Virus record (IMG/VR): IMGVR_UViG_3300029134_000184
From: a virus
Direction: 5' to 3' (one strand)
Length of the DNA: 64,000 bases
In this document: positions 16-56,395 of the stretch, piece by piece
How positions within the stretch are numbered: position 1 is the first letter of the stretch
Layout of the letters: the number at the start of each line of letters is the position of its first letter
Made by a program: the position numbers and the translations under genes
Notes under the pieces: model-generated
Databases searched by the model: none
What the model was told of the DNA's origin: nothing
Seen by the model: the letters and a program-made list of their open reading frames with translations, nothing else

Positions 16-1485
16 ATGGCAAATTCCAACAGAAAGAAAACCCGCAAACTGCATGAAGCCAAACAGGCTAAGAAGGCTGAGGATACGAAAAAAGAGAAAT
101 CAGTCAGGAAGGCAAAGGCTGATATAGAAAAGCCGATAAAATATACAGTTACAGCAGAACAATTGGATGACGGAACCTTTAAGTTCAACGGCGGCAAAAG
201 CGTATTTAATATCACCATGCAGAAGAATAAAGCATTAGAGCCTTACGGAAAATGCATACATAATTACGGTGTCCTTTTAGAACTGATTCCTGGCGATAAG
301 CAGACTGCAATCAACCAGCAGATTGGGAATGCCAGGGTCGTGCATAATGATTACCTTTCCAAACGCATTGATTATTACAAAGAAAGCAAGGAGACCCTGA
401 CTGTCTCCAAATATAAAAAAGATTATCTCCCGGCATTAAAGGAAGAAAAGGAATATCTTAAGGATACGGATAAGTTTGTTTATGAAAACGCCTGCCGGAA
501 TGTAGATGACGCGTACAGCAGATTTTTTAAGGGGTTATCCGGATTTCCGAAGTATGCCTCCAAAACTAAACCGAACGGGAACAGTTTTACAACAAATTTC
601 ACGAACAACAACATTGAACTGAAAATGGTTGATGGAATTCCGCATGTCAAGCTTCCAAAAATCGGGTATGTCAGATTTATCCTTCCAAAAGGAAAGACGT
701 TAGCTGATATCCAGCCGCACGGAGTATCAATCAAAGCGGCAACCGTAAGCAGGGAGCCAAATGGTTCATACCGTATCTCACTCAGAATGGAGAGTGTGAT
801 TGATAAACCTGTATTTCCAACCGTTATCAATGCCCGGGAGATAATCTCTGTTGACCTTGGGTTGAAAGAATTTGGCGTTTTTGGAAACCTGGAAGAGTCA
901 ATCCCCGTACCGAACCCGAGATGGATTCAGGTCCATGCAAAGAGATTGCGGAGATTTCAGCAGAGCCTTTCAAGAAAGCAGTATGACCATAAGACACATG
1001 CCGGTTCAAAGAACTGGGAGAAAGCCAGGACTAAGGTCGCCAAAGAGCAGCGTAAGATTGCCGACCAGAGAAGGGATTTCCATCATAAACTTTCAAGAGC
1101 GATTACAGATAACTGTGTTTCTTTCATATGCGAAGACCTTGCGGTTAAGAACATGATGCAGAACCGCCATCTGTCAAAGTCAATCGCATCTGTTGGCTGG
1201 TCTCAATTTTTAACAATGGTACAGTATAAAATGGAGCGCGATGGTAAACATTTCAGAAAAATCAGCAGATGGTATCCGTCATCACAGACATGCGGCTGCT
1301 GCGGGTATAAAAATACAGATGTTAAGGATTTGGGCGTCCGGAAATGGATATGCCCGAAGTGCGGAACCTGGCATGACCGCGATATCAACGCTCAACAGAA
1401 TATATATAAGATTGGGGCAAAGATACTCCAGGACGAAGGGATACAGATTGTTGGTCTCCCTGTAACAAACAAATCTGCAAACTGA
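16..1485 (+). CDS. tnpB: TnpB (IS200/IS605-family OrfB) RuvC-like RNA-guided nuclease with an ~80-aa Lys/Glu-rich N-terminal extension
   Basis: RuvC-I SVDLGLKEFGVF, RuvC-II ICEDLAVKNM, zinc finger CGCCGY...CPKCG, RuvC-III DRDINAQQNI. The TnpB N-terminal fold starts near residue 82 (YGVLLELIPGDKQ). Residues 1-80 are an extra basic segment homologous to ORF 27617..27874. Confidence 0.85.
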   Translation: MANSNRKKTRKLHEAKQAKKAEDTKKEKSVRKAKADIEKPIKYTVTAEQLDDGTFKFNGGKSVFNITMQKNKALEPYGKCIHNYGVLLELIPGDKQTAINQQIGNARVVHNDYLSKRIDYYKESKETLTVSKYKKDYLPALKEEKEYLKDTDKFVYENACRNVDDAYSRFFKGLSGFPKYASKTKPNGNSFTTNFTNNNIELKMVDGIPHVKLPKIGYVRFILPKGKTLADIQPHGVSIKAATVSREPNGSYRISLRMESVIDKPVFPTVINAREIISVDLGLKEFGVFGNLEESIPVPNPRWIQVHAKRLRRFQQSLSRKQYDHKTHAGSKNWEKARTKVAKEQRKIADQRRDFHHKLSRAITDNCVSFICEDLAVKNMMQNRHLSKSIASVGWSQFLTMVQYKMERDGKHFRKISRWYPSSQTCGCCGYKNTDVKDLGVRKWICPKCGTWHDRDINAQQNIYKIGAKILQDEGIQIVGLPVTNKSAN

Positions 1486-1800: not shown

Positions 1801-1853
1801 TCATGGGTTCTTCACTATAGACAAAAATGAAAGGGGGAAAAGACTTTCAAAAA

Positions 1854-3032
1854 ATGCAGAAAAAAAATAAATTTCCGCCAGGTTTTGCTGTTGCGGCAGT
1901 TGGTTTATCCGGCATACTGTTTATGACAGGATGCACAGGTGAGTATGACGTACTTGATAAAGTTGCTGACAGTACAACAGTTGGCGAAAGTATTACGGAT
2001 AAAATAAACGATATGGTCAGTGACCAGTCTCAGAACGTTACATATATATGTAAGCGAATGAAGACATTATCTGGAGAGGTTGAAACAGAAGAGGATGCCG
2101 AAAGGCCGGAGTATAATCCTGAAACATATGCTGATACCAGTAAAGCAGATATCAGTAAATTTAAAGCCAAAAAGATTTCTGTCTCTGATGATGAGGTTGA
2201 TGACTATATCAAATCATTGATGCGTGAAGCACGTATATATGGAGATGAGACCGATGCCATTGATGAGGAATGTATTGCCCATGTGGCATACGTAAAAACT
2301 GATACTGACACAAAAGAAGAAATCCAGAATCTGTCAAATATGGAATGGAGTTTTGATTCGAGCTTCTTCCCGGAAGAAGTAAGTAAAAAACTTATCGGAT
2401 GCAAAGTCGGAGACAACGTGAAAGTGAAGTGCTCTGGTTATGAATACGATATTACTGTAAATGACATTAACTCCGTAAACATAACAAATATGGCAGTATT
2501 TACACTGACAAGCGGGCAATACATGAATGCGTCAAATTACAGAACGTTTATCAAAAACTACCTGTACAACCAGAAAGTGTTGAGTGCAAATGAAGATTCC
2601 ATTGATAAGCTTTGCAAATCGGTTTCCGTAACCGGATATCCTGAAGATGTCTTGTCATACGACATTCAGCAGAAATTCATGTATTACTATCAACTGACCG
2701 GAGCCAACAGCCCGGATGATAAAACTTTTAAATCTTACATTAAGGATAATTTTGGATGTAAGACCACAAAAGAATTTACAACAAAGATTCAAAAAGAAGC
2801 AGAACAGAGCCTTGATGATGAAATAAAGATTCTGGCTCTTGCGAAAAAGTACAATTTATGGCTGGATGACGATAAACTGGCAGCAGAAGTTATGCAGAAT
2901 ACTACAGAATATTCCAGCGCAGAGGACTATTATGCGGCATGTTCAAAATCATATGCCAGATATTTTATATCAAAATTAAATCTTGCAAAGGAAATTCAGA
3001 AAAATGAAGAACGAATTGAGGGCGCCGGATAA
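1854..3032 (+). CDS. lipoprotein, unknown function
   Basis: N-terminal signal with lipobox LFMTGC. Start chosen at MQKKNK; the alternative ATG at 1827 has no RBS. Confidence 0.55.
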   Translation: MQKKNKFPPGFAVAAVGLSGILFMTGCTGEYDVLDKVADSTTVGESITDKINDMVSDQSQNVTYICKRMKTLSGEVETEEDAERPEYNPETYADTSKADISKFKAKKISVSDDEVDDYIKSLMREARIYGDETDAIDEECIAHVAYVKTDTDTKEEIQNLSNMEWSFDSSFFPEEVSKKLIGCKVGDNVKVKCSGYEYDITVNDINSVNITNMAVFTLTSGQYMNASNYRTFIKNYLYNQKVLSANEDSIDKLCKSVSVTGYPEDVLSYDIQQKFMYYYQLTGANSPDDKTFKSYIKDNFGCKTTKEFTTKIQKEAEQSLDDEIKILALAKKYNLWLDDDKLAAEVMQNTTEYSSAEDYYAACSKSYARYFISKLNLAKEIQKNEERIEGAG

Positions 3033-3810
3033 GCCATATTATCCTAAAAACACATTAAGGACATTACGAAAAACGGGTGTCCTAATTGATGAGCTTGAAG
3101 CAAGACGTGAGCATGAAGAACAGTTTAAACTCACGCCTTATGAAAAAGCAATGCATGACCAGCTAAGCGAGACCTTCAAAGTATCGCGCCCGGCAGAGGG
3201 AATAAAAAGCGCCCTTGAAGATGAGAGGGAGCTAAAATCAATTAGAAAAGAATATGTTACAGCATCAAAGATACAGCGAGACAGGACGGAGCTGAAAGAG
3301 AACGCAGACAATGACAGCCTTGGAATGGTACTCATTGCGGCGGGAACTCCGATGGTGCTTGTGGGTGTTACACTGCTTGAAACATTTATGGCTGCCGGAA
3401 TTGGTGTTATCGCAGCAGGTGCGGCGATGTATATGCCAATGTTTATAAGAGAAATAACCAAGAAAAGGAAAGCGAGAAAAAAATTAAAAAACATAACAGA
3501 AAATGTTGACGATTTGTCAGAGACTATTGACCGGAAAATGGCTAATATAGATAAAATCTGTTCTATGTATGGAATCCCTGTCAATTGTACTGACCGCGAG
3601 CAGTATCTCAGTTCTTTGTTTGATGCGGCAACCACATATGAGGCCCTGGAGAAAAAAGAGACTGATTATGAATTGCTCTGTCAGCTGAATAACAGTGGTA
3701 AGATAAAAAATCAGATTACTGAAAATCTTAAAGCTATGTCAGGGCTGACGGTTGTAGACGAAAACAACTTTGAAGATGTTTTAGACAAGCTGGCTTCACA
3801 GTTAAAATAA
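3004..3810 (+). CDS. hypothetical membrane protein
   Basis: ORF with two hydrophobic helices (VLIAAGTPMVLVGVTLL / GIGVIAAGAAMYMPMF). RBS AAGGA 10 nt upstream of MKNELRAPD. The 5' end overlaps the previous gene. Confidence 0.45.
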   Translation: MKNELRAPDKPYYPKNTLRTLRKTGVLIDELEARREHEEQFKLTPYEKAMHDQLSETFKVSRPAEGIKSALEDERELKSIRKEYVTASKIQRDRTELKENADNDSLGMVLIAAGTPMVLVGVTLLETFMAAGIGVIAAGAAMYMPMFIREITKKRKARKKLKNITENVDDLSETIDRKMANIDKICSMYGIPVNCTDREQYLSSLFDAATTYEALEKKETDYELLCQLNNSGKIKNQITENLKAMSGLTVVDENNFEDVLDKLASQLK

Positions 3811-3835
3811 AATAGAGAAAAGAGGAGATAAAAAA

Positions 3836-5152
3836 ATGATTAATACAATCAAACAGGCATTGACAACACGCGAAATCAGACGAAAGCTGGAGCTGATGGT
3901 GTTTGTCATCTTTATTACCCGAGTAATCTCAATGATTCCGGTTCCCGGAATAGATGCTTCCGTATTTAAACAGTGGATGGCAGTAAATTCCAATGATGCA
4001 CTAAACTTGTTCTCAGCATTCACCGGAGGCTCATTTGAGAATTTCTCGATGTTTGCTCTTGGTATCACCCCACTTATTACAGCGCAGATTGTAGTTCAGC
4101 TGCTCGGCAGCGTTATCCCGTCACTTGGCAAGCTTCAGAAAAAAGGCGAGCATGGACAGAAAGTGACAAAAAAAATTACAAATATTGTTGGTATCGTCCT
4201 TGCAATCGTTCAGAGCTGCTGCATGGCAATCGGCTTTAACAAAGGAGGCTTAATCAACGGAAACGGCGTTTTATGTGTTATCTTAATCACAACATTTATG
4301 ACAGCCGGAACAGGTATTATGATGTGGCTTGCGCATATCCTTGATGAAAAAGCAATCGGAAACGGTGTGTCAATCCTGCTGATGGCAAATATCTTGTCAA
4401 GAATGCCTGGACAGTTTGCATCACTTTTTAAATCACTTACGAAGGATAAAAGTACTCCAATTGCAGCACTGTCAATTACAGCAGCTATACTAATTTTTGC
4501 AGCTATCATTATTGTAATCATTTATATGACAGAAGGATATCACCCGCTGCATGTACAGTATTCACAGAAGATGAGTCAGTCTGGCGAAGACGCAGAAACC
4601 GGTCTTATCCCGGTAAAAGTTGGTATTTCTGGTGTTATGCCGGTAATCTTTGCTTCCTCTCTTATGGCAATTCCACAGCTGATTGCAGCTATCGCCGGAA
4701 AGGGATATGGAAGCGGGCTCAGTAAAATCGTTTTAAATATGATGTCCCAGAAGAACTGGTTTGATAACGACAACCCGGTCTATGGCTTAGGACTTCTGAT
4801 TTACCTGGCGCTGATTGTGTTCTTTGCATATTTCTACCTCCCGATTACATTCAATGCGGCAGAGGTATCTGATAACATCAGAAGAAGCGGAGGTTTCGTT
4901 CCGGGAATAAGAGCGGGCGAGGATACAGAACAGTACATCCAGTATATCTCAAGAAGACTTACTTCAATCGGTGTTGTGATGCTGATTTGTGTGACCGTAA
5001 TCCCGATTGTTATCTGCGGTGCACTTGGCCTTAATTCAACAATCGGCGGTACTTCACTGATTATCGTTATCGGTGTTATTACAGAAACAGTACAGCAGAT
5101 TCAGCTTGAACTTGCAGGAAGAAATTACTGCGGTATCTTATGCAGAGATTAA
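3836..5152 (+). CDS. secY: SecY preprotein translocase subunit homologue
   Basis: 438 aa with 10 predicted TM segments and SecY signature blocks (RVISMIPVPGID, FSMFALGITPLITAQIVVQLL, GEHGQKVTKKITNIVGIVLAIVQS). Strong RBS AGAGGAGATAAAAAAATG. Confidence 0.85.
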   Translation: MINTIKQALTTREIRRKLELMVFVIFITRVISMIPVPGIDASVFKQWMAVNSNDALNLFSAFTGGSFENFSMFALGITPLITAQIVVQLLGSVIPSLGKLQKKGEHGQKVTKKITNIVGIVLAIVQSCCMAIGFNKGGLINGNGVLCVILITTFMTAGTGIMMWLAHILDEKAIGNGVSILLMANILSRMPGQFASLFKSLTKDKSTPIAALSITAAILIFAAIIIVIIYMTEGYHPLHVQYSQKMSQSGEDAETGLIPVKVGISGVMPVIFASSLMAIPQLIAAIAGKGYGSGLSKIVLNMMSQKNWFDNDNPVYGLGLLIYLALIVFFAYFYLPITFNAAEVSDNIRRSGGFVPGIRAGEDTEQYIQYISRRLTSIGVVMLICVTVIPIVICGALGLNSTIGGTSLIIVIGVITETVQQIQLELAGRNYCGILCRD

Positions 5153-5164
5153 GGAGGGGTAGAA

Positions 5165-5401
5165 ATGGAAATAACAAAAGCTAAGAATTTTGACACGAAT
5201 GGTGTTGCAGAATTTGAAAGTGTTGACGAGGAGACACATGAAGTAACACCTGATATGAAATATATCAAATGGCCAAGCAAGAAAAAAGTCTTTTCTGAAT
5301 TGGTCTCTGTCGCAGTAGCATCCATTATTATTGCAATGGTTATTGCAGCCGGTGACAGTATCGGTATGACGATTGTAAATTTTGTTTTGAAATTCTTCTA
5401 A
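5165..5401 (+). CDS. secE: SecE-like translocase subunit
   Basis: 78 aa. C-terminal KYIKWPSKKKVFSELVSVAVASIIIAMVIAAGDSIGMTIVNFV aligns with the SecE core (B. subtilis KKVSWPKGKELTRYTITVISTVIFFVIFFALLD). Immediately downstream of secY with RBS AAGGAGGGG. Confidence 0.6.
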   Translation: MEITKAKNFDTNGVAEFESVDEETHEVTPDMKYIKWPSKKKVFSELVSVAVASIIIAMVIAAGDSIGMTIVNFVLKFF

Positions 5402-5414
5402 TGAAGAAAGTATT

Positions 5415-5447
5415 GCACCACGCGCGAAAGCGCGTGGTGCTTTTTTT
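5415..5447 (+). terminator. rho-independent terminator
   Basis: GCACCACGCGCGAAAGCGCGTGGTGC hairpin followed by TTTTTTT. Confidence 0.7.
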
Positions 5448-5536
5448 GTTGCCATTTTTTGTTATTACGGCTGCTCCAGCATATTAATTTATGTCAAAGA
5501 AATACTAACTATAACAACAGAAAGGAACTGGTGATA

Positions 5537-6340
5537 ATGGGAGAGAAACAACAGCCAAAATCTTGTATTTATCCAAAGCCTGAGCATTATAACGACCTGG
5601 CAGATAAGCCGATAACGAAAGATGGAATAATGGACAATGCCATTGAAATCATTTATATCTGTGCTTATAAAGCTGAAAGATTCGTCAACAAGCAATATGT
5701 GGGGGTGTCGGTTGAAAGCCGTGAAGACATCATCCAGTATGTAGCTGGCCAGATTAAGGATTTGATTGAAAACTATCTTGACAAAATTGACGAAAAAAGG
5801 GTTGATTTTTGGGCTTATATGAACAAAAGCATTCAGTATACCGCAAGCAGAGCTTATCAGACTGAAGTTAAAGATGGTGCGTCCGAATACATTCGGCACC
5901 GATACGACATGATGTCCAAATATCTCGATGAAGGGTTAACGCTGGAAGAGATTGCAGAGAAGTGTAACTGCAGGGTGTCTACGGTAAGGAAAACCCTTAG
6001 GGATGGAAAGGCAATAAATGTGAGTATCGACGCGGAGGACGATATCGGACATGCCATTCTTGATAAAGTAGGTAAAAATGATGTGTATAAGATTGAAGAA
6101 GAGGAAAAAGTATCAATCGAAGATAACATCTTAATCCGAAAGGTTCTTAAAGGTATGACAAGGGAAGAAAAGTTCATTATAGAAACTTACCTTAATATCA
6201 AAAAGGACTGTGAAAAAGAATGGAAAGACAGAACGTTTGCAGCTTGTAAGGAGTATGGCATTACTCATAAAAAAGTGAATGATGCAATCAGAAGCTTTAA
6301 AAATGAGGCCAGAAAAATGCGTAATGAGCCTTCTGGATAA
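5537..6340 (+). CDS. putative sigma-70-family (region 2/region 4) transcription factor
   Basis: C-terminal HTH LTLEEIAEKCNCRVSTVRKTL resembles sigma region 4. An upstream helical region resembles region 2. Preceded by the element-specific promoter motif at ~5476. Confidence 0.4.
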   Translation: MGEKQQPKSCIYPKPEHYNDLADKPITKDGIMDNAIEIIYICAYKAERFVNKQYVGVSVESREDIIQYVAGQIKDLIENYLDKIDEKRVDFWAYMNKSIQYTASRAYQTEVKDGASEYIRHRYDMMSKYLDEGLTLEEIAEKCNCRVSTVRKTLRDGKAINVSIDAEDDIGHAILDKVGKNDVYKIEEEEKVSIEDNILIRKVLKGMTREEKFIIETYLNIKKDCEKEWKDRTFAACKEYGITHKKVNDAIRSFKNEARKMRNEPSG

Positions 6341-6461
6341 TACAAGGTTTTGGCTTGTACAAAAACCTATAACAACACATGAGCAGCGGGGAAAACCTGC
6401 TGTTTATTTTTTGCCTGATTTTGCATATTGAAAACAAATACAAAAACAGGAGGGAAAAATA

Positions 6462-7514
6462 ATGAAAAATTTAAAAAAATCTGTTTTATGCATGCTAATG
6501 GCAGTTGTCATGGTGATGACTGTAACAGCTGCAAGCGTCATTCCGGTTCAGGATGTGTATGCGGCATCTGTGAAGCTGAATAAGACTTCACTTAACCTGT
6601 ACACGAGGACTATGATTCAGCTTACTGTATTAAATACAGGAGCAAAAGCCAAATGGTCATCAAGCAAACCGAAGGTTGCAAGCGTGACAAGTGAAGGTTA
6701 TGTCACTGCCCGCTCTGCAGGAAAAGCAAAGATTACCGCAGTTGTTGGCAAAAAAAAGCTGTACTGCAATGTCACCGTCAATGTTAAACCTGGCGAAGAA
6801 GTGAAGATGGAGTTTAAAGATTGTAAAGTTCAGGTTGGAAAAACTACACGTCTCCGCCTGATGAACATTGTCGGCCTCGCTTCATGGAAAAGTAGCAATA
6901 CAAAAATTGCTACTGTAGACGCGAATGGAGATGTAACAGGAAGAAAAACCGGTTCTGCGACAATCACTGCTACATATCACTGCAAAAGATATACTGCAAA
7001 AGTGACTGTTATATCCGGTACAACGTCTGGAACGTCAGTTATCAGAAGGAAAGCTCCTTTGGCTGACAGCGGTGTGCTGAATGCGTTTGACAAGCTTGGC
7101 TTTAAATATGCTTATGACCCGAATATTACTGGGTTCACAGGCAAATTTTCAGCAAAAGAGCATCGCATCATTGTAAGACGCGAAGAAGATGACTGTATCT
7201 ATCATGAGCTTGGTCATTTTGTAGCATGGGTAGCTGGCGATGTTGACTACAAGAAAGAATGGAAAGCGATTTATGACAAAGAGAAAAGCAAAGTTACATA
7301 TTTCAATAAAGGTTATGCAACACAAAATCCTAAGGAATATTTCGCAGATGCATATAAGGATTATATCCTGCATCGTTCTTCACTGTCTTCAACAAGACCT
7401 TTGACATACAAGTATGTTAAGGCTGCAGTCTCAAAAGTCAATGCAATGACGAGTACTAACTTTGAAAGAATGCATAAGCTGTATGACTCTATGTGGAATA
7501 AATATGGTGCTTAA
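6462..7514 (+). CDS. secreted protein: signal peptide, two Big_2 Ig-like domains, C-terminal HExxH zinc metalloprotease (anthrax lethal factor / PPEP-like)
   Basis: Signal peptide MKNLKKSVLCMLMAVVMVMTVTAASV. Two repeats of the Big_2 pattern (KPKVASVTSEGYVTARSAGKAKITA..). YHELGHFVAW plus downstream EYFADAY is typical of the ATLF-like family. Confidence 0.7.
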   Translation: MKNLKKSVLCMLMAVVMVMTVTAASVIPVQDVYAASVKLNKTSLNLYTRTMIQLTVLNTGAKAKWSSSKPKVASVTSEGYVTARSAGKAKITAVVGKKKLYCNVTVNVKPGEEVKMEFKDCKVQVGKTTRLRLMNIVGLASWKSSNTKIATVDANGDVTGRKTGSATITATYHCKRYTAKVTVISGTTSGTSVIRRKAPLADSGVLNAFDKLGFKYAYDPNITGFTGKFSAKEHRIIVRREEDDCIYHELGHFVAWVAGDVDYKKEWKAIYDKEKSKVTYFNKGYATQNPKEYFADAYKDYILHRSSLSSTRPLTYKYVKAAVSKVNAMTSTNFERMHKLYDSMWNKYGA

Positions 7515-7608: not shown

Positions 7609-8580
7609 ATGAAGATTAAAGAAATCAAAACAAACGGAATTGGAACTGTTGAGGGTGTTGTCATTGCTTTAGAAGAAAAGGCAAATAAAAATAACAGCAG
7701 CTTTATCAACATGACTGTCAGTGATGGCGAAACTCAGGTTGTCGCCAAGGTATGGAACGCAGACCTTGAAACGTTTAAATTTAAAACAGGGCAGGCGGTT
7801 CTTGTGGAATTAAAAATGGAGGAGTATAAAGGACAGAAAAGTTATGTCGCCCGTGAAATTACGGCATCTTCTGCTGACCCGGCACTGTTTATCTGCGGCG
7901 CTCCGGTAAAATCAGAAGAGATGTATAACTTCCTCTATAAAACCGCTGGAAGATGCGGCGTGTATGCGTCAACGGTCAAGAAGATTCTTGATGACAATAA
8001 AGACCATCTGATGTTCTGGGGCGCTGGCAAAGCAGTGCATCATAATATCAGAGGCGGTCTTTTATATCATACATACCGTATGACAAAAACGGCGGCATAT
8101 ATCACCTCTGTATATAACAAAGAGCCGTCAATGCTGAAAGGCTGTCGTGACATCAACACAGAACTTCTTGTTGCCGGCTGTATCCTGCATGACATCGGAA
8201 AACTTTGGGAGCTTGATACAAATGAATTTGGTGCTTCAGATTATACCGTGAAGGGAAACCTGATGGGGCATTCATTTATTGGCGCCGAGCTTGCGGGCAA
8301 GACCGCCAGAGAGCTTGGTGTAGATGAGGAAAATGTGATGCTTCTGCAGCATGTAATCCTGTCTCATCATGGAAAATATGAATGGGGTGCTGTCACCCTT
8401 CCGGCAATCCCGGAAGCTATGATTTTGCATCATATTGATATGATTGATGCCGATATGTATCAGTTTGAATCACAGGCAGAAGCCTTAAAACCAGGTGAAG
8501 CGACAAGCAATCTGATTTTTGGCTTAGACCAGAAAGTTTATAGACCGACATGGAGGGTTCCGGTGGAAGAAAAGAAGTAA
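7609..8580 (+). CDS. yhaM: YhaM-like 3'-5' exoribonuclease (N-terminal OB fold + HD phosphohydrolase domain)
   Basis: OB-fold N-terminus, then the HD motif (ILHDIGK ... LSHHGKYEWG ... HHIDMIDA). Confidence 0.7.
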   Translation: MKIKEIKTNGIGTVEGVVIALEEKANKNNSSFINMTVSDGETQVVAKVWNADLETFKFKTGQAVLVELKMEEYKGQKSYVAREITASSADPALFICGAPVKSEEMYNFLYKTAGRCGVYASTVKKILDDNKDHLMFWGAGKAVHHNIRGGLLYHTYRMTKTAAYITSVYNKEPSMLKGCRDINTELLVAGCILHDIGKLWELDTNEFGASDYTVKGNLMGHSFIGAELAGKTARELGVDEENVMLLQHVILSHHGKYEWGAVTLPAIPEAMILHHIDMIDADMYQFESQAEALKPGEATSNLIFGLDQKVYRPTWRVPVEEKK

Positions 8581-10932: not shown

Positions 10933-11865
10933 CTAATTCTTTAAACTATTCTGAACCCTTTTAACATAAGCAGCTATATGCGGGGCTGTCTGCTCAAGAC
11001 CGTCCGGGTCTTCCAAGCTTAACCTGAAAGCCTCTGCAAAATATTCTGCATTATTGCATATATTCTCATCTTCCAAGTCGTATTTCTGTTGTAAGGCTGT
11101 TGCCTCCGATTCGTGTGATTGGGTGACTACGTTAGAGTCAGAACGCCCGGTAGCTGATACCTGGAAATCTACCGCATGTCCGAGCTCGTGGTAGATGGTA
11201 TCTTTAAGGCTTACGGCATCACATCTGAGATACATTTTCCTTTCATCAATTCCTCCTCCAGATTGTATGTATGTCAGGCCATTGACAACCATTCCTTCAT
11301 CCATGTCAGCGGTTGACTCACCTTCCAGATAAGCGGCGGGATTGTTGCACATACAGATTTCATAACTTTGTAAAATCTGAATGTATTGGTCATCAAGCGT
11401 ATTGAAGATATCTGTGGCAAGTCCGATATACAGATTGCATGCATCGGTTTCACCAAAGATGTTGAAATTGTATTTCTGCGTTTTGCACAAATACCCATTG
11501 TATACGTATCCGAGATTCGTGTAAGACCATTCATCTCCATCATTTCCAAGTATGCTTATTGATTCGCCCTTTTTGTATGTTCCGACAATCGGGCTGTTCG
11601 CATCGGCTGACTGATGGATGTTGAGGTCAGTGACCGTGTAACAGATACCCTCCGGCGGGTCTGGCTTTGTGTTGTAAAGCGATAGGTCTTCAACCGGTGC
11701 GGGCGTTTGTTCGGTTGTCTGTTCCGGTGCTGCCGGCTGCTCCTCAACTATCTGCTGCCCGGAGTCTGAAATTCTCAGGTCTGGCAGGTCTGCCGTTGCA
11801 AATGCCGGTATATTAGTTGTTAAAATTGCTGCTGTTAAAGCAGCAAGTGTAAGTATCTTTTTCAT
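10933..11865 (-). CDS. secreted HExxH zinc metalloprotease (anthrax lethal factor / Pro-Pro endopeptidase-like)
   Basis: Signal peptide MKKILTLAALTAAILTTNIPAFA. TIYHELGHAVDF ... NAEYFAEAF. Paralogue of the C-terminal domain of 6462..7514. RBS AAAAGGAGG. Confidence 0.7.
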   Translation of the reverse strand: MKKILTLAALTAAILTTNIPAFATADLPDLRISDSGQQIVEEQPAAPEQTTEQTPAPVEDLSLYNTKPDPPEGICYTVTDLNIHQSADANSPIVGTYKKGESISILGNDGDEWSYTNLGYVYNGYLCKTQKYNFNIFGETDACNLYIGLATDIFNTLDDQYIQILQSYEICMCNNPAAYLEGESTADMDEGMVVNGLTYIQSGGGIDERKMYLRCDAVSLKDTIYHELGHAVDFQVSATGRSDSNVVTQSHESEATALQQKYDLEDENICNNAEYFAEAFRLSLEDPDGLEQTAPHIAAYVKRVQNSLKN

Positions 11866-11966
11866 TTCTTTCCTCCTTTTGCTGCATATACAATATGCAA
11901 AAAATCCGCAAAAATTTGACAATTTTAAAAACGGCTGTTAAATTAAAAGAAAAAGGAGGTAAGAAT

Positions 11967-15825: not shown

Positions 15826-18800
15826 ATGGATATTAGAACAGAAGAAAGATATGAAGACGATTTTAATCAGGGCAATTTATTCATCATGAAACGTTCAGGA
15901 GAAAGAGTCCCGTTTGATGAAAGTAAAATCGTGAGGGCTATTGAAAAGGCAAATGCCGAGGTAACAATCCCTCTTGAAAAGATGAGTGAGGAAAAGATTG
16001 AAGAAATTGCAGCTCAGATTAAGCGTGATGCAGAAAATGCAGGCAGAGACCTGTCAGTGGAGGAAATCCAGGATAAAGTGGAAGACTCACTGATGATTGC
16101 CGGATACTGCACGCTGGCAAGATTATATATCACTTACAGATATAAACATAACCTTGACAGAAAGAAATCTACACTTGATAAGAAGATTGAAAGCCTTATC
16201 AATGTGAAAGTTAACAAAGACGGCAGCGTAAGCGGCAGCAATGAGGAGGTAAACCAGGAAAACAGCAATAAGGACACAAAAGTACTTTCAGTACAGCGTG
16301 ACTATATGGCTGGTGAGTGGTCAAGGGAGTATACAAGTAGAAACCTGCTTCCGGAAGATGTGGTGAATGCACACCGAAGCGGTCTGATTCATGTACATGA
16401 TACGGATTATATGGCCCAGCCGGAAGGAAACTGCTGTCTCATTAATCTTGAAGACATGCTGCAGAATGAAACCTGTATTTCTGGTACTAAGATTGAAAGG
16501 CCGAAGTCATTCATGACTGCTTCAACCGTTGCAAGCCAAATTATCGCTCAGGTTGCCAGCAGCCAGTATGGCGGTCAGACAATCAGCCTGGCACATCTCG
16601 CTCCGTTCGTTGACATATCAAGACAGAAGATTTTAAAGAGGCTGTCAAAAGAAATGTCCGATATTGGCATTGAAGTAACCGAAGAAAAATTAAAAGAACT
16701 CGCTGAAAAAGAAGTAAGAAAAGAAGTTGAGAATGGCTGTCAGACATTGCAGTATCAACTTATCACTTTACAGACAACAAATGGACAGGCTCCTTTTGTG
16801 ACTGTGTTCATGTATCTGAATGAGGCAAAAAATGAGAGGGAAAAAGAAGACCTGGCGCTTTTGATTGAAGTAATGTTTAAACAGAGAATGCTTGGCGTTA
16901 AGGATAGCAGTGGTTATTATATCACTCCGGCTTTCCCGAAACTGATTTACTGCCTGCAGGAAGATAATATCAGTGAAGATGGTAAATACTGGTATCTGAC
17001 AGAGCTTGCAGCAAAATGTACTGCCAAGAGAATGGTTCCGGATTATATTTCTGAAAAGAAGATGCTGGAGCTTAAAGGGGATGTGTACCCCAGCATGGGA
17101 TGCGTTGATGGAAAAGAAGTTGTAACATATAAATACAACGGAAAAGTCTATGTTGAAGCATTTGAAAGAATGTGGAATAGATTAGGAAAATACTTTGAAA
17201 TCAATCTGCAGGAAAATGGAAAAGACTATGTGATGAAAACCCCTGGCGTTATGATTTATGACCAGTGTAAGGGATTCGTTGATAACTACGGAATTATCAA
17301 AAACCATAATTCCGAATGGCTGCGGATAAGTTTCTCTAACGGAAGGACTATTACTTGTACTAAAGACCATCCATTTGAGACTTGTGACAATCGGGTTGTA
17401 TATGCAAAAGATTTGAAAGAATCAGATTTGATTGCAATTGATAAAACATCCGATTTTGCACCTGAATACACTTATTCCATGAAGACAAATCGTGCATGGC
17501 TTTATGGCTTTACGTTATGTGATTCTACTTATTATGACAGCATCATTGCCTCAATTGCACAGGATGGTGAACAGGAAATCAAAGATATGTTTGTCAATAC
17601 TATCAAAAGCGAATATGGACTTGATGTAACAGATACGGAGAGACACAGAGGAGTTAGAGGTAATTATATTGACTTACTTGTTAATTCTGATGGTACTAAT
17701 ACATACCGTAATCTCAGACTTGATTTGGCATGCTCTTTTGAGGGTAAAGCTAAAAACGACAGGCATATTCCAAATGAAGTTTTTTCCTGGACAAAAGAAG
17801 CAAAGCTTGCATTTTTGGCAGGAATGATTGATGCTGACGGTTATCTTAGTACACATATGAAAAAGGCAAAAATGCTAATTGGCTCAACAAACAAGGAGCT
17901 TGCCATTCAGCAGATGCTTTTAGCACAGTCTTGCGGAATGTTTGCTGTGATTTATCCGAATCGTTATAAAACAAACAGAAGGGATAAAATCAGATATCGT
18001 GTTGAATTCACACCAACTGAAGAGCTGCTGACATTTATCCAGTGTGAGAAGAAAGTAGCTCTGCATGATTCAATCCTTGGAAATACAAATGCAAGCATCG
18101 CGTCTGAGTCAACATGTCATATTACAAAAGTTGAAGAGATAAATGAAGAAGGCTTTAGTTATGATGTTACAACCGCAAGCGAACATTTTACAGTTTCAGG
18201 ACTTTATAGTCATAACTGCAGAAGTTTCCTTACTCCTGACAGATGCAGCGAGAAGGTTGGAAATATCGCTCATGCCCTTAATTATGAAGAGGGTAAGCAT
18301 AAATATTACGGCCGCTTCAATCAGGGTGTTGTAACAATCAATCTTATTGATGTTGCATGCTCATCAGAAGGCGATGAGGACAGGTTCTGGAAAATCCTTG
18401 AAGAGAGACTTAACTTATGCCATAAAGCACTTCGTGCAAAACATGAAAGGCTGCTTGGAACACCGTCAGATGTGGCACCGATTCAGTGGCAGTACGGAGC
18501 ACTTGCAAGGTTAAAACCTGGCGAAGTAATTGACCCGCTGCTGTTCAACGGATATTCAACTATTTCTCTTGGATATGCCGGTTTGGCTGAATGCGTGTAC
18601 TTCATGAAGCATGAATCTCATACTTCTGAAAACGGAAAAGAGTTTGGCTTGAAAGTTATGCAGGCGCTGAATGATGCCTGTGGTAAATGGAAAACAGAAG
18701 AAAATATTGATTATTCTGTATATGGTACCCCGTTGGAATCGACAACGTATAAATTTGCAAAATGTCTGCAGAAACGTTTTGGTAAAATCCCGGGAGTGAC

Positions 18801-19284
18801 AGACAAGAATTATATTACAAATTCCTATCATATCAGAGTAACAGAAAATATCAATGCTTTTGACAAGCTGACAAAAGAAGCAGAGTTCCAGAAACTGTCT
18901 CCTGGCGGGGCAATCTCATATGTTGAGGTGCCTAATATGCAGGGAAACATTCCGGCGGTTCTTGCAATCATCAAACATATCTACAATACAATTCTTTATG
19001 CTGAACTGAATACAAAGTCAGACCAGTGTGAGGCTTGTGGATATAATGGAGAAATCCAGATTGTGAACAAAGACGGCAAGCTGATTTGGCGCTGCCCGCA
19101 GTGCGGATGTACAGACCAGAACAAGATGCACGTTGCCAGAAGGACTTGTGGATATATCGGAACGCAGTATTGGAACCAGGGAAGGACTCAGGAAATCGCA
19201 GAACGTGTATTACACGTATCTGTTGATGAAGATGAATCTGAACAGAAACCAGTAAAAATACTGCCAAAATGTGTTGTTGCTTAA
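15826..19284 (+). CDS. nrdD: anaerobic ribonucleoside-triphosphate reductase NrdD (class III), interrupted by an intein
   Basis: ATP-cone N-terminus. C-terminal zinc ribbon CEACGY...CPQCGC and glycyl-radical motif RTCGYIG. The extein junction PSMG|C...SHN|CRSFL matches the conserved NrdD MGCRSFL block. Confidence 0.9.
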   Translation: MDIRTEERYEDDFNQGNLFIMKRSGERVPFDESKIVRAIEKANAEVTIPLEKMSEEKIEEIAAQIKRDAENAGRDLSVEEIQDKVEDSLMIAGYCTLARLYITYRYKHNLDRKKSTLDKKIESLINVKVNKDGSVSGSNEEVNQENSNKDTKVLSVQRDYMAGEWSREYTSRNLLPEDVVNAHRSGLIHVHDTDYMAQPEGNCCLINLEDMLQNETCISGTKIERPKSFMTASTVASQIIAQVASSQYGGQTISLAHLAPFVDISRQKILKRLSKEMSDIGIEVTEEKLKELAEKEVRKEVENGCQTLQYQLITLQTTNGQAPFVTVFMYLNEAKNEREKEDLALLIEVMFKQRMLGVKDSSGYYITPAFPKLIYCLQEDNISEDGKYWYLTELAAKCTAKRMVPDYISEKKMLELKGDVYPSMGCVDGKEVVTYKYNGKVYVEAFERMWNRLGKYFEINLQENGKDYVMKTPGVMIYDQCKGFVDNYGIIKNHNSEWLRISFSNGRTITCTKDHPFETCDNRVVYAKDLKESDLIAIDKTSDFAPEYTYSMKTNRAWLYGFTLCDSTYYDSIIASIAQDGEQEIKDMFVNTIKSEYGLDVTDTERHRGVRGNYIDLLVNSDGTNTYRNLRLDLACSFEGKAKNDRHIPNEVFSWTKEAKLAFLAGMIDADGYLSTHMKKAKMLIGSTNKELAIQQMLLAQSCGMFAVIYPNRYKTNRRDKIRYRVEFTPTEELLTFIQCEKKVALHDSILGNTNASIASESTCHITKVEEINEEGFSYDVTTASEHFTVSGLYSHNCRSFLTPDRCSEKVGNIAHALNYEEGKHKYYGRFNQGVVTINLIDVACSSEGDEDRFWKILEERLNLCHKALRAKHERLLGTPSDVAPIQWQYGALARLKPGEVIDPLLFNGYSTISLGYAGLAECVYFMKHESHTSENGKEFGLKVMQALNDACGKWKTEENIDYSVYGTPLESTTYKFAKCLQKRFGKIPGVTDKNYITNSYHIRVTENINAFDKLTKEAEFQKLSPGGAISYVEVPNMQGNIPAVLAIIKHIYNTILYAELNTKSDQCEACGYNGEIQIVNKDGKLIWRCPQCGCTDQNKMHVARRTCGYIGTQYWNQGRTQEIAERVLHVSVDEDESEQKPVKILPKCVVA
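17101..18216 (+). mobile_element. intein with LAGLIDADG homing-endonuclease domain inside nrdD
   Basis: Begins with Cys (CVDGKEVV) and ends SHN before extein Cys. Two LAGLIDADG blocks (LYGFTLCDSTYY, LAGMIDADGYLS). Confidence 0.8.
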
Positions 19285-27486: not shown

Positions 27487-27616
27487 GAGCAGACGCCGGC
27501 GAAGCCGGCGGCTGCCTTTTTTGTAAAAAGAAAAAAAAGGCTCTAAAAAACGACAAAAAAGAAAAATATTCGGCATATTAAAAGTATAAGAAATTTACAG
27601 AAAGGAGATGTACGAT

Positions 27617-27874
27617 ATGGCAAACTCAAACAGGAAGAAAGCCCGTAAATTACAGGCAGCCAAGAAAGCGAACGCCGCCGAAAGAGAGAAGGCTGCTAAG
27701 AAGGTAAAGCCTGCCGAAGAAAAACCGATAAAGTACACTATCACAGCAGAACAACAGGCTGACGGTACTTTTGAGTTTCACGGAGGCAAAGGCGGATTCA
27801 ATATCATTAAGCAGAAGAATAAAGCATTAGAGCCTTACGGAAAACATTATGTGATTTTGGTGTTGGCAGTATGA
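27617..27874 (+). CDS. small Lys-rich protein homologous to the N-terminal extension of TnpB (16..1485); possibly a truncated remnant
   Basis: ~75% nt identity with bases 1-250 of the window, including a 33-nt identical block CAGAAGAATAAAGCATTAGAGCCTTACGGAAAA right where homology ends. Own phage promoter motif at ~27578 and RBS AAAGGAG. Confidence 0.5.
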   Translation: MANSNRKKARKLQAAKKANAAEREKAAKKVKPAEEKPIKYTITAEQQADGTFEFHGGKGGFNIIKQKNKALEPYGKHYVILVLAV

Positions 27875-34996: not shown

Positions 34997-35434
34997 ATGC
35001 GTAAAAAAATATTATTACTGACACTTACATTATCCGCAGTAGTGATGACATCCGGCTGCGGCTGCGGTAAGCCAAAAACAGTTGAGGAGGATATCGTAGC
35101 TGAAAGCGAGAAAAAAGATACAGTTGATATAACGGCTGACCCAACCGATTCGCCGACACCGACAATTAAGACGGAGGATGACTTTACGGAAGAGGATTTC
35201 AAAAACACGGAATATGTCACCATAGATAACGTAAACGTGAGGGCAAACCCGGATGCAAATTCTGACATCATCAGCAGCATGGAAAAAGGGTCACGGGTTA
35301 AGGTATCCGGACGAAAAGAGGATAAAGAAGGCAATAAATGGTACAAAGTATCTGCTGATGATTCGGGCACGATTGGATACATGTCGACGAAATATGTTAA
35401 CATTGTCCATAAGAAAGGAGATACAGCAAAATGA
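34997..35434 (+). CDS. lipoprotein with SH3b-like domain
   Basis: Signal/lipobox LSAVVMTSGCGCG. C-terminal VNVRANPDANSDIISSMEKGSRVKVSG..WYKV resembles the bacterial SH3. Confidence 0.55.
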   Translation: MRKKILLLTLTLSAVVMTSGCGCGKPKTVEEDIVAESEKKDTVDITADPTDSPTPTIKTEDDFTEEDFKNTEYVTIDNVNVRANPDANSDIISSMEKGSRVKVSGRKEDKEGNKWYKVSADDSGTIGYMSTKYVNIVHKKGDTAK

Positions 35435-37203
35435 GAAAAGGCAAAGACCCAAACAAGAAGCCACCGACAAAAAGACAGAAGATTATCTGGACTTCATTCA
35501 TCGTAATCTGTGTTTTGATGATAGCGGTAATGATATGCGGAGTTTTCGGGCTTAAGAAAGCAAAGCTATTTAAAGATAGTGCCAAGGAAGTTAAATATGA
35601 AAAATTCCTTGAAATGATTGATGACAAAAAAGTCAAAGACATCAAATGGTCAGAGGATGAAGAGACCATCACTTTCAGCGACAAGAAAGATAAGTCTTAT
35701 ACAACAGCCAATCCGAAATATGAAGACTTTAAAAAAGATATGCTTGAGAAAGGCATTGAAGTGAAAGAGACAAATGGCCTTGGAAAATACGAAACACCGA
35801 TTATGATGGGCGTGCAGATGCTGATGTATATCATTCTCTTCGCGATTATGATTAAATGTACCGGCATGGGCTCATTAATCTCCCCGAAAGAGGCAAAAGA
35901 AGCAGAAAGTAATGTCAAGTTTAAAGATGTTGCCGGTCTGGAAGAGGTCAAGGAAGACCTGATGACAGTAGTTGATTTCTTAAAGAATCCTGATAAATAT
36001 AAAGAAGCCGGAGCTGAGATTCCGAAAGGTATTCTCCTTTATGGCCCTCCAGGCACTGGAAAAACACTCCTCGCAAAGGCTGTTGCCGGTGAGGCTGGTG
36101 TAAAATTCAAAGCCGTTTCCGGTTCTGACTTTGATGAAAAATATGTAGGCGTTGGAGCCAGCAAGATGAGAAAGCTTTTTGATGACGCAAAATCAAATGC
36201 GCCATGCATCATTTTCATTGACGAGATTGATTCAATGGGAGGAAAGAGACATTCAAAACAGAGCAATTATGACAGACAGACATTAAATACACTGTTATCT
36301 GAAATGGATGGCTTTGATGGAAGTAATGGCGTAGTTGTTATCGCTGCAACAAACAGACTTGAAGACCTTGATTCAGCACTTACCAGACCGGGAAGATTTG
36401 ACAGCCATTTTGCAGTAAGTCTGCCGGCGACAGCAAAAGAGAGAAAGCTTATCATCAACCTGTATGCAGAAAACAAGAAATTTGCAGAAGACGTTGATAT
36501 GGAAGCGTTTGCAAAAGAAACTATTGGAAACAGCCCGGCATCAATCAAGACTACATTAAACGAAGCGGCAATCATTGCAGCGAGAAGAAATAATGGTATT
36601 ATCAACCGTGAAATCCTTGATGAAGCATGGATGAAACAGCTGATGGAAGGACACTTAAAGAAGAATGCCGATAAAGACAATATTGAACTTGTCGCATGGC
36701 ATGAAGCAGGACACGCCCTGGCTGGTCTCCTGATGGGACAGGATTTAACAAAGGCTTCAATCATTCCGTCAACTTCCGGAGCAGGTGGAGCTACATTTAT
36801 CACCCCGAAGAAGCTTGGCCTGTTTACCGTTGATGATTTGAGAGAGCAGGTGGTTATGCTGTATGCCGGAAGAAATGCTGAACGGCTTTTTGCAGCAGAG
36901 AACAATATGACAGAAAACGGCGTCACAACAGGAGCTTCAAATGACATTGAGAAAGCGACAGGTATCATCAAAAAGATGATTACCGAATACGGAATGAGTA
37001 AAAAATTCGGTCTGCTTAACCTTGAAGAGCTTGATGTAAAACCTGATGTGATTACCGAAGAGGCAGTTAAGCTTGCTGAAGAATTAAATGAAGAATCTTT
37101 CAACCTAATGAAGGACAATGCAGACAAGCTTAAAAAGATTGCTGAAAAACTCGTAGAAAAAGAAACTTTAACAGGAAAGGAGATAAAGGAGATTGCAGGA
37201 TAA
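35431..37203 (+). CDS. ftsH: FtsH-like membrane-anchored AAA+ zinc metalloprotease
   Basis: N-terminal TM. Walker [31 protein letters not shown], zinc site HEAGHAL. Confidence 0.85.
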
Positions 37204-40440: not shown

Positions 40441-41796
40441 ATGAGTACTTCAAAAAAAATTACTTTAACCCTTATTTGCCTGCTAAGTATTATATTAGGA
40501 ACCGGATATTTTCTTGGCCTGGCATATTTTCAAACACATTTTAAAATCGGAACAGAAATAAATGGTTTTAACTGCTCGTTCAAATCGATAGACGATGCAG
40601 ATGCATTGCTGTCGCGGGAAGTGCAGAGCTATGCAATGGCTGTTAACACCAGAAACGGCGGCGTAGAAAAGATATCTGCGGACGATGTCGGAATGGCGTT
40701 TGCCGGAAAAGATGAACTGATTGATATGGTAAATCATCAAAACTACAATTTATGGTTCCTGCCAGAAAATACAAACGTCACTCTTCCAGTTGGATGTTAT
40801 CAGATTGATGAAACAAAAATGGACGAAGAGTTTAACAGCCTGAAATGTATGAACAATATGGTGAAGCCTGAAAGCGCACATATCGTTGAGACTAATGATT
40901 TTTATCAGGTGGCATCAGCCGTAAAGGGTAACGAGCTTGACGTAAACAAAACCCGTCAGATAATTGAAACAGCAATCAGGCAATGGCAACCGGAAGTAGA
41001 CCTGGAATCATCAGAATGTTACATTGAAGCAGAAGATATTGATGAAGATGTATTGCAGCAGAGATGTGACTTGTTAAATTCAATCCAGGATACAATCATT
41101 ACATATGACTTTGGGGATAGAAAAGAAACAGTAGATTTTGAGAAAATAAAAGATAAATTTATAAATAATGACTATGAACTGAGTTCTAAAAAAATCCAAA
41201 AATATATTGAAAAACTGGCAGAAAAATATGATACTGTCGGAGTTGAGAGAAAATTTGTCACGTTTGATGACAGAACCGCCAGTGTCACAGGTGGTGATTA
41301 CGGATGGAAGATAAGTGTAAATGATACAGCGTTAGAGCTGATGAACCTTATAACAGAAGATACGCTTGATGTCGTAAAACCAGTATACGTCCAGACCGCT
41401 GCAAGCAGGATGAAAAACGACATCGCTCATTCTTATCTTGAAATTGATGCTTCAAATGATATTGCTGTGATGTATGTTGACGGAAAACCAGTAGTCCAGT
41501 CAAAGATTAAAGTTAATGGAGACATCGCGACAGGCTGCTATAAAGTCCAGGGTAAACAGGACATAACTGACGATGGAAGGATAAGAAATATTTCATTTGG
41601 AAACTCGAGCATTTATCAATATACAGGAAATGAGTCTTCCGGTTTTTCCGGCTCTGATGATATTTCAGGATTCTCATCAAATGGAGTGAAAGAAAATTGT
41701 GCAGCTGTGGACGAAACCGGTATGACGACAATTTTTAATACTATGCAGGATACATGGCCTGTAATCGTTTATAATAATGAAAATATTGGAGGTTAA
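40441..41796 (+). CDS. membrane-anchored hypothetical protein (possibly cell-wall associated)
   Basis: N-terminal TM helix, large extracytoplasmic region. No confident family. Confidence 0.4.
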   Translation: MSTSKKITLTLICLLSIILGTGYFLGLAYFQTHFKIGTEINGFNCSFKSIDDADALLSREVQSYAMAVNTRNGGVEKISADDVGMAFAGKDELIDMVNHQNYNLWFLPENTNVTLPVGCYQIDETKMDEEFNSLKCMNNMVKPESAHIVETNDFYQVASAVKGNELDVNKTRQIIETAIRQWQPEVDLESSECYIEAEDIDEDVLQQRCDLLNSIQDTIITYDFGDRKETVDFEKIKDKFINNDYELSSKKIQKYIEKLAEKYDTVGVERKFVTFDDRTASVTGGDYGWKISVNDTALELMNLITEDTLDVVKPVYVQTAASRMKNDIAHSYLEIDASNDIAVMYVDGKPVVQSKIKVNGDIATGCYKVQGKQDITDDGRIRNISFGNSSIYQYTGNESSGFSGSDDISGFSSNGVKENCAAVDETGMTTIFNTMQDTWPVIVYNNENIGG

Positions 41797-41803
41797 GAAT
41801 TTT

Positions 41804-42367
41804 ATGGAAGATAAAAAAGAAAGTGACGAAAAAGTGAACAATAAAAAAATTATTCGTCATACTATAGTTGTATATTTGACAATAGCTGTTGCGACATTCA
41901 CTGCAGTAGTGCTTTTATACTCATGTGTGCTTATAAACGCGTACATCCCGTCCGAATCTATGGAAACGACCTTAATGACAGGCGACAGGGTAATCGGCAA
42001 CCGTCTCGCTTACAAATTTGGCCACGACCCGGAAAGATTCGATGTTGTAATATTCTATGCCCCTGATTCCGGTGAACTCTATATAAAAAGGGTAATCGGA
42101 ATGCCTGGCGAAACAGTGACCATCAATGATGGAAAGGTTTATATTAATGATTCTGATGCTCCACTTGATGATTCTTTCATCAGAGAACCAATGGAGACAG
42201 AAGGTAAAAGCACATATAAAGTACCTGAGGACAGTTATTTCATGATGGGTGATAACAGAAACGAGTCTTATGATTCAAGATTCTGGGACAACCCATATGT
42301 ATCAAAAGATAAAATCGTCGCAAAAGCTTCTTTAAGATACTGGAAGGGTATCAAAATTGTTAAATAA
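41804..42367 (+). CDS. lepB: type I signal peptidase (S26, LepB/SipS-like)
   Basis: SPase boxes PSESMETTL (Ser), YIKRVIGMPGE (Lys), GDNRNESYDSRFWD. Confidence 0.8.
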   Translation: MEDKKESDEKVNNKKIIRHTIVVYLTIAVATFTAVVLLYSCVLINAYIPSESMETTLMTGDRVIGNRLAYKFGHDPERFDVVIFYAPDSGELYIKRVIGMPGETVTINDGKVYINDSDAPLDDSFIREPMETEGKSTYKVPEDSYFMMGDNRNESYDSRFWDNPYVSKDKIVAKASLRYWKGIKIVK

Positions 42368-56086: not shown

Positions 56087-56395
56087 ATGAAAAAGACAAT
56101 GTATTCTGCAATGAAAAACCTAGCGGAATATATTGCTGCAAGCCAGTCGTCTGACTTTGATGGAATATGGGATGAATGGAGCAGCAAATATAAACCGGAA
56201 GATTATATGGAATTACCGCTTAGGAAAATGGGAATGCAGTTATGTCAAATAGACAAAGCTGAGATAAAGAGTGTGCCAGAAAGAAGCTATAGAGACACAA
56301 TTAAAAAGACGTTAAAACCTGGAATTAATAAGGAGGAGTTCGAAAATGAGCGAGAAGAATACTTCAAATCAGCAAGATACGACGAAGCAGAATGA
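56087..56395 (+). CDS. hypothetical protein
   Basis: Two promoter motifs upstream (56020, 56032). RBS AAGGAGG. Confidence 0.45.
   Translation: MKKTMYSAMKNLAEYIAASQSSDFDGIWDEWSSKYKPEDYMELPLRKMGMQLCQIDKAEIKSVPERSYRDTIKKTLKPGINKEEFENEREEYFKSARYDEAE

Follow-up and report, generated by a model that had tools for sequence, protein, structure and literature searches.

An operon for SecY and SecE and a predicted auxiliary Sec translocase on a large mobile element of the human gut

Genes for the core Sec translocon are textbook chromosomal essentials. In a full-text literature search, the only report of SecY on a mobile element concerned the 'Hodor' conjugative megaplasmids of the human gut, which reside in Bacillota hosts (Yuan et al., bioRxiv Feb 2026, PMC12934698), and Sec genes were unmentioned in the huge-phage papers that were checked. 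The Hodor elements are 211-389 kb in size with a GC content of 44.6% (G2) or 47.1% (G1), frequently carry TnpB and tend to be misassigned to viruses; their Sec module has the order hyp-SecY-SecG-SecE, a trigger factor is co-transcribed with sortase B, and SecA is unmentioned (PMC12934698). They are defined by Rep_3, ParA/ParB/ParM, VirB4/VirD4/VirB6, a MOBH-like HD relaxase and a giant protein of >7300 aa (PMC12934698). Here we analyzed the 64,000 nt of the IMG/VR virus record IMGVR_UViG_3300029134_000184 (this whole stretch is referred to below as the window), in which secY and secE stand in tandem, and describe a conserved Sec module that is under selection on a highly prevalent gut mobile element.

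The original prediction for this DNA had placed the two genes on a phage or another mobile element behind a promoter of their own, and had considered an accessory SecY2-type channel devoid of the usual SecA2/Asp partners. The SecY and SecE are genuine and lie on a mobile or extrachromosomal element, but the phage, the separate promoter, the SecY2 type and the absence of SecA did not hold up. The element is best placed with the megaplasmid-type elements recently reported to carry a Sec module of their own, as a further member and perhaps as a separate lineage. Its novelty is lower than had been assumed, as SecY/SecG/SecE together with trigger factor and sortase B have already been described on megaplasmids (PMC12934698). 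Four features appear to be undescribed, namely an intein-bearing SecA, an acidic C4 loop of SecY, an exported trigger-factor-like foldase, and an orphan partner protein with two transmembrane (TM) helices. We consider it probable that the module is an auxiliary Sec translocase which would serve an export line of the element itself.

SecY, SecE and the replicon that carries them

The secY product matched Pfam PF00344 over the entire profile (1-306/306, E = 2.5e-83), scored 316 bits on TIGR00967 of NCBIfam (curated cutoff, 253.6), and aligned end to end with the solved SecY chains 8y9y_Y (residues 1-429, E = 1.5e-73) and 5eul_Y. The pore ring (I77/I81/V178/L182/I271/I410), the N-terminal IPVPGID and the C5-loop arginine R359 (in PGIRAG) are kept, and so is the plug segment FSAFTGGSFEN, a check that had been proposed from the outset. 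The adjacent small protein scored 32.0 bits on PF00584 (gathering score, 22.7) and was slightly under the cutoff of the stricter TIGR00964 (24.5 vs 27.55 bits). It has an IKWP hinge followed by a lone TM helix at residues 42-60, and a small secE-homologous gene lies directly after secY in all relatives examined. We accept this protein as SecE because it passes the Pfam gathering score, has the IKWP/TM layout and is encoded in conserved adjacency to secY. A second clade of element-borne SecYs also has a gene in the SecE position beside secY, but PF00584 does not mark it there. The predicted full-length SecY and the 78-aa SecE were both recovered as plus-strand open reading frames (ORFs) at exactly the expected coordinates (Table 1).

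The true secY genes of Lachnospiraceae, C. difficile and Bacillus are located between rplO and adk, and the window secY is not. A ribosomal-protein operon around secY, which would have pointed to a bacterial chromosome, was searched for and not found; the genes sit on a non-chromosomal element. Nearly all window genes are on one strand. They encode TnpB, an intein-containing NrdD with NrdG, RtcB, leucine-rich repeat (LRR) and Big_2 proteins, a homing endonuclease, integrases, FtsH, SIR2, signal peptidase I, a class-B sortase, an HflK-like SPFH protein, SSB, sigma factors and glycosyltransferases, and scans of the window returned neither a tRNA nor an Rfam family. Copies of the same Sec module are found on metagenomic contigs that also encode TnpB, inteins and homing endonucleases.

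The classification as a phage was not borne out by the database searches. PHROGs gave no structural or packaging match for 20 unannotated window proteins, no capsid, portal, terminase or tail genes were detected with PHROGs and Pfam in the ~100 kb of the window and related loci, and no relatives were found in IMG/VR using either a single protein or an alignment of the clade. When positions 1-25000 were compared by megablast with GenBank phages and PLSDB, a single alignment of 292 bp (74% identity) was obtained, and no plasmid was matched. The SecY matches obtained by tblastn in the same two collections (at most 39% identity) were, in the inspected cases, chromosomal-type copies in mislabelled or contaminated records, and the GTDB representative genomes returned only Mycoplasma SecYs of 24-25% identity. 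The 90% cluster of the window SecY comprises 728 variants, one of which occurs on 364 contigs; the longest of these, at 392,568 bp, carries a near-identical SecY. Other window proteins were present in >2000 blocks of the collection. A related element SecA is named as that of Frisingicoccus sp., and a foldase homologue comes from the isolate 'bacterium 210702-DFI.5.13'; these named sources point to a Lachnospiraceae host. We regard the window as part of a very large, Hodor-like, non-chromosomal element of human-gut Lachnospiraceae-type Bacillota.

The resemblance to Hodor extends to human-gut contigs of several hundred kb, frequent TnpB, a hypothetical gene just before secY, element-encoded SecY and SecE, a trigger-factor-like protein, a class-B sortase, anchored surface proteins and the Bacillota affinity of SecY. 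Unlike in Hodor, the trigger-factor-like protein, the hypothetical protein, SecY and SecE are encoded in this order in one operon, and the sortase gene is 40 kb away. No SecG is encoded in the 12 nt between secY and secE, nor was any SecG-like ORF found, and an intein SecA belongs to the conserved neighborhood of the relatives of the window element, whereas the description of Hodor makes no mention of SecA. The GC content is 39.2% in the window and 38-40% in loci of the same lineage, compared with 44.6-47.1% in Hodor. None of the Hodor-defining genes listed above, from Rep_3 through the partition, VirB4/VirD4/VirB6 and MOBH-like relaxase genes to the >7300-aa protein, was found in the 64-kb window or in the 10-kb flanks examined.

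We compared the window SecY with host SecYs in a distance-based neighbor-joining tree with 200 bootstraps, which is not a maximum-likelihood tree and was built without SecY2 references. The window clade, represented by 19 sequences that are 49-81% identical to the window SecY, was monophyletic with 100% bootstrap support; this clade is large, deep and known from metagenomes only. Its sister group consisted of chromosomal Lachnospiraceae SecYs and the second element-borne clade, a unit with weak support (48%), and the whole assemblage of window clade and sister group was separated from C. difficile, Bacillus and E. coli with 100% bootstrap support. Lachnospiraceae SecYs are the closest to the window SecY (43-47% identity). 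The ratio of nonsynonymous to synonymous substitution (dN/dS) against the relatives was 0.08-0.11 out to synonymous saturation, indicating purifying selection. The placement within the Lachnospiraceae SecY radiation indicates that the element secY was captured from a Lachnospirales-type housekeeping secY and then diversified on elements.

The second element-borne clade is found on contigs of up to 226 kb (related loci L017 and L020; L numbers designate related loci throughout). Its gene order is Big_2 protein, SecY, SecE and HD protein, the C4 loop of its SecY has remained basic, and RelA_SpoT, SSB, a Dam methylase and a giant Ser/Thr-kinase/WD40 protein are encoded nearby.

The four-gene operon, SecA and the C4 loop

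secYE forms the distal part of a four-gene operon, in which the genes for the exported trigger-factor-like foldase and the orphan 2-TM protein precede secY and secE, and which is closed by a strong terminator. The foldase gene overlaps the 2-TM gene by 29 nt. secY starts 25 nt after the 2-TM gene behind the ribosome-binding site (RBS) GAGGAG, and secE follows 12 nt after secY behind AAGGAGGGG, in agreement with the strong RBSs that had been predicted. There is no convincing promoter directly before secY; the sole promoter-like match (3780..3808) scored 9/12, and the region contains fewer such matches than its shuffled versions. The notion of a promoter belonging to secYE was abandoned on these grounds. 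Upstream of the operon, an IS605-type TnpB gene and its non-coding tail of ~330 nt reach to within 11 nt of the annotated foldase start; this segment is context and not part of the Sec machine. L025, which is 96.8% identical to window positions 1816..7477, has a divergent AT-rich intergenic region in place of the TnpB segment, indicating that the insertion sequence (IS) in the window copy displaced the native promoter region of the operon.

The likely true start of the foldase gene is the ATG at 1854, located behind GGGGGA. The protein matched TIGR00115 over residues 98-368 (E = 1.2e-8), and its homologues bear PF00254 (FKBP_C) or PF05698 (Trigger_C). An AlphaFold2 (AF2) model based on 31 sequences was confident over residues 91-394, with residues 1-90 disordered, and the top Foldseek matches of this model in the PDB were the trigger factors 3gu0, 3gty, 1w26 and 2vrh (E 5e-9 to 8e-6). 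At its N-terminus the protein has a signal peptide containing a lipobox-like LFMTGC; throughout the family this end stays hydrophobic, yet most homologues have no cysteine. From its sequence and model, the foldase is probably extracytoplasmic and functionally PrsA-like. Set against what is generally known of PrsA-type foldases, it is similar in the signal peptide, the lipobox-like motif and the layout of peptidyl-prolyl isomerase (PPIase) plus chaperone, but differs in that an FKBP-type PPIase and a trigger-factor C-domain arm take the place of the parvulin/PrsA fold and in that the cysteine is mostly missing.

The orphan 2-TM gene is invariably located directly upstream of secY in the window clade (L015, L016, L018, L025 and L026). 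Its product had no Pfam family above cutoff and was matched by just 24 representative clusters at E <= 1e-3 among 1.84 billion proteins. A phmmer search of PDB sequences gave no meaningful match for this protein or for the foldase, and the single-sequence AF2 model of the 2-TM protein, with a mean confidence (pLDDT) of 48, was unusable. We regard the 2-TM protein as a candidate accessory Sec subunit.

In L015, L025 and L026, the region upstream of the operon includes a gene for an intein-bearing SecA of 1149-1153 aa. L025, 97% identical to the window, carries an intact 1149-aa SecA gene 6.3 kb upstream of secY together with a SecY/SecE pair of identical length, and the corresponding position would be just outside the left end of the window. 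The supposed lack of a SecA partner is contradicted by this relative, and the search for SecA and SecG suggested at that time succeeded for SecA in the three loci and was negative for SecG. The intein sits at the P-loop (GEGK|T), begins with Ala and ends with HN (SecA at L015 1736..5191 and L025 671..4120); intein-free variants of ~797-801 aa also exist. On canonical SecA models, the L025 SecA passed both cutoffs (995 vs 814 and 951 vs 800), whereas it failed all four SecA2 models (866<1085, 760<930, 637<1100 and 552<725). Once spliced, the element SecAs are ~800 aa long and devoid of the SEC-C zinc finger (PF02810), which is present in the chromosomal Agathobacter-type SecAs of 855-857 aa.

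SecY and SecA of the element are canonical by hidden Markov model (HMM) cutoffs and share the pore ring, plug and C5 arginine with the housekeeping SecYEG-SecA. They differ from the housekeeping system in that secY lies outside the spc operon, secE is in the operon of secY (chromosomal secE usually adjoins nusG), the C4 segment is acidic, SecA has no SEC-C and often carries an intein, and SecG was not found. In the C4 loop of the window SecY, Q248-S249-G250-E251-D252 replaces the basic pair that corresponds to R255/R256 of E. coli. The loop reads QSGE(D/E)AETG in the window clade vs GR(R/K) in chromosomal SecYs and the second element clade, and the QSGE(D/E) motif is near-universal among 71 members of the window clade. 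Its net charge is -3 in the window SecY and ranges from -3 to +2 in the clade, compared with +3 to +7 in the other two groups. The C4-loop arginines of E. coli SecY are required for ribosome binding. Given this role, their loss hints at a bias toward SecA-driven, ribosome-independent export. The clade-specific loss of ribosome-docking arginines can be seen as a natural experiment on how SecY is partitioned between SecA and the ribosome, and the zinc-finger-less SecA, the exported trigger-factor homologue and the orphan membrane partner likewise inform this question in detail that exceeds the brief account of the Hodor preprint.

The proposed export line and its alternatives

Signal peptidase I, FtsH, an SPFH protein and a sortase had been noted alongside secYE, and all four were found in the window, FtsH and the SPFH protein with scores below curated cutoffs (Table 1). 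In L018, the 2-TM gene, secY, secE and the genes for a PG_binding_4 protein, signal peptidase I, a Band_7 protein, SSB and sortase are all within 10 kb. That signal peptidase I, Band_7, SSB and sortase are linked to secYE in this relative too supports the idea that the element installs an export route, but specific routing of substrates is not supported. The element FtsH is likely a quality-control partner, and the HflK-like SPFH protein is likely an FtsH modulator. Signal peptides or N-terminal anchors occur in at least 12 window proteins, and sorting signals of the sortase-B type in two; the 1093-aa secreted protein is likely a cargo of both Sec and sortase.

The sequence evidence favors, as the probable explanation, an auxiliary Sec translocase dedicated to the export line of the element. 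SecY and SecE would be the channel of a functional translocase, co-transcribed with the exported foldase and the orphan 2-TM partner, and, where the element is intact, the canonical-type intein SecA encoded a few kb upstream would act as the motor. Signal peptidase I, FtsH with the HflK-like protein, and class-B sortase would complete an element-owned line for export, processing, folding and anchoring, in which the foldase would stand at the trans side of the channel. The cargo would be the many signal-peptide and NVKTG-anchored surface proteins of the element, and we infer that the channel is mainly used by such element-encoded cargo. Elements of this kind could supply an export machinery of their own for the display of large adhesin-like proteins, with a bearing on colonization, aggregation or conjugation and on the reshaping of Lachnospiraceae cell surfaces by the megaplasmid class.

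Several observations weigh against this explanation. With the IS between the operon and its native promoter region, it is uncertain whether the window copy is expressed. One contig with an identical SecY retains only the last 84 secA codons, located downstream of TnpB, and SecA may be dispensable in view of this remnant. SecG was not found among small hydrophobic ORFs and neighboring small genes, and genes for YidC, SecDF and the signal recognition particle (SRP) were not found either. The signal peptides of the cargo look like ordinary Sec signal peptides, which argues against their strict routing to a private channel rather than the host channel. A further step, for which we can offer no more than a tentative suggestion, is that the module provides a private and partly insulated lane of post-translational export that runs parallel to the ribosome-coupled SecYEG of the host and re-surfaces the host. 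Such a lane might be composed of the co-diverged SecA without the zinc-finger tail, the SecY with the charge-inverted C4 loop, SecE, the element-only 2-TM subunit and the trigger factor re-targeted to the outside.

Among the alternatives to an auxiliary translocase, the one that survives best, although we find it unlikely, is a kit for host independence or takeover, in which short-lived or limiting essential envelope functions, SecA included, are duplicated with no specific cargo. It would sustain export and growth under host shut-off, during a lytic cycle like that of huge phages, or against toxins using SecY or FtsH. Many window genes are indeed duplicates of housekeeping type (SecY/E, FtsH, signal peptidase, SSB, NrdDG and sigma factors), inteins and homing endonucleases are typical of large phages, and the ordinary signal peptides of the cargo would fit as well. 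However, virion and packaging genes were not found in the ~100 kb of the window and related loci, IMG/VR contains no relatives, and the tight and conserved linkage of SecYE to foldase, sortase, signal peptidase and surface proteins speaks for a secretory purpose.

Much less credible is an accessory system of the SecA2/SecY2 type that serves a single glycosylated adhesin. The SecA2/SecY2/Asp system resembles the module in being a second SecA/SecY pair beside the housekeeping one with surface proteins in the locus, and the relatives have GT2 glycosyltransferase genes nearby. The window SecY, however, remained far below the cutoffs of the SecY2 models (135 vs 249.6 bits on TIGR02920 and 128 vs 353 bits on NF009082), which disposes of the SecY2-type channel in the original prediction, and SecA failed the SecA2 models while passing the canonical ones. 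No Pfam families of Asp1-3 or of a serine-rich glycoprotein substrate were found among the called genes of the window and related loci, the signal peptides are short and ordinary rather than long and specialized, and the SecY clade falls inside the Lachnospiraceae radiation. We give equally little weight to a decaying passenger without function, for which one could cite the IS insertions beside the operon and, on some contigs, within or close to secA; the dN/dS of ~0.1 up to synonymous saturation, the intact catalytic and structural residues and the synteny conserved across a clade reaching down to 49% identity are at odds with decay. Least probable of all is a chromosomal fragment or a mis-binned housekeeping secY, since the canonical-type SecY, for all its closeness to Lachnospiraceae SecYs, has no rplO/adk context and adjoins SecE in a region that contains TnpB, integrases and inteins and that duplicates FtsH, signal peptidase and SSB.

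Table 1. Positions of the Sec operon and of linked or neighboring features in the window
Feature	Position	Strand	Description
SecY, canonical type, element-specific clade	3836..5152	+	438 aa; HMM matches, structure alignment
SecE	5165..5401	+	78 aa; acidic N-terminal extension, IKWP motif, single C-terminal TM helix
Exported trigger-factor-like foldase	1827..3032	+	FKBP + Trigger_C fold; without ribosome-binding domain
Orphan 268-aa membrane protein	3004..3810	+	Central 2-TM hairpin, helical cytoplasmic arms
Intrinsic terminator closing the operon	5415..5450	+	11-bp stem, 9 GC pairs, 4-nt loop, then TTTTTTTGTT
IS605-type TnpB gene and non-coding 3' tail	gene 16..1485, segment 16..1815	+	Pfam OrfB_IS605, Cas12f1-like_TNB
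Secreted protein with two Big_2 domains and an ATLF-type metalloprotease domain	6462..7514	+	YHELGH; likely cargo beside the operon
Divergent FtsH membrane protease	35431..37203	+	FtsH_ext, AAA, Peptidase_M41; TIGR01241 489 bits < cutoff 600
Membrane-anchored PG_binding_4 protein	40441..41796	+	N-terminal TM; overlaps the signal peptidase gene; paired with signal peptidase in a relative too
Type I signal peptidase	41777..42367	+	TIGR02227 141 bits vs cutoff 47; PF10502
Class B sortase	45555..46409	+	TIGR03064 177 bits vs cutoff 153.75
1093-aa secreted protein	46604..49885	+	Signal peptide; C-terminal NVKTGDEN, TM helix, RKFLKK
284-aa surface protein	49956..50810	+	C-terminal VVETGDEN, TM helix, KKKK
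SPFH/Band_7 protein, HflK-like	57584..58636	+	PF01145; TIGR01933 E = 3.8e-31, under cutoff

Cargo motifs, insertions and neighboring genes

The sorting signals NVKTGDEN and VVETGDEN (49586..49885 and 50511..50810), both encoded downstream of the class-B sortase gene, share a conserved acidic DEN extension, and the NVKTG-type signals recall the NVQTG-type motif of C. difficile SrtB. A second secreted ATLF protein with YHELGH is encoded at 10933..11922 on the minus strand and is fused to SH3_3; both ATLF proteins hold conserved positions next to the Sec operon in the relatives. The divergent FtsH and the HflK-like SPFH protein could act together as a membrane quality-control pair specific to the element.

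The TnpB junction is where many short-read contigs end, suggesting that the IS is multicopy. Between the window TnpB and the copy beside secA in L002, the identity is only 89%. An 88-aa ORF at 27608..27874 starts with MANSNRKKARKLQAAKK, the same N-terminus as that of TnpB at 16..1485, and is probably a truncated second TnpB. The intein of NrdD (15826..19284), the anaerobic ribonucleotide reductase, contains a LAGLIDADG endonuclease.

Sigma-70-like proteins are encoded at 5459..6340 and 56346..57359, the first of which has only the region-4 helix-turn-helix (HTH). The gene at 5459..6340 follows the secE terminator in all close relatives and may regulate surface-protein genes. The product of 7609..8580 combines an OB fold with an HD domain and is similar to YhaM, a 3'-5' exoribonuclease (E = 4e-50, under cutoff). 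This protein is not obviously the MOBH-like HD relaxase of Hodor, and the second element clade also encodes an HD protein right after SecE.

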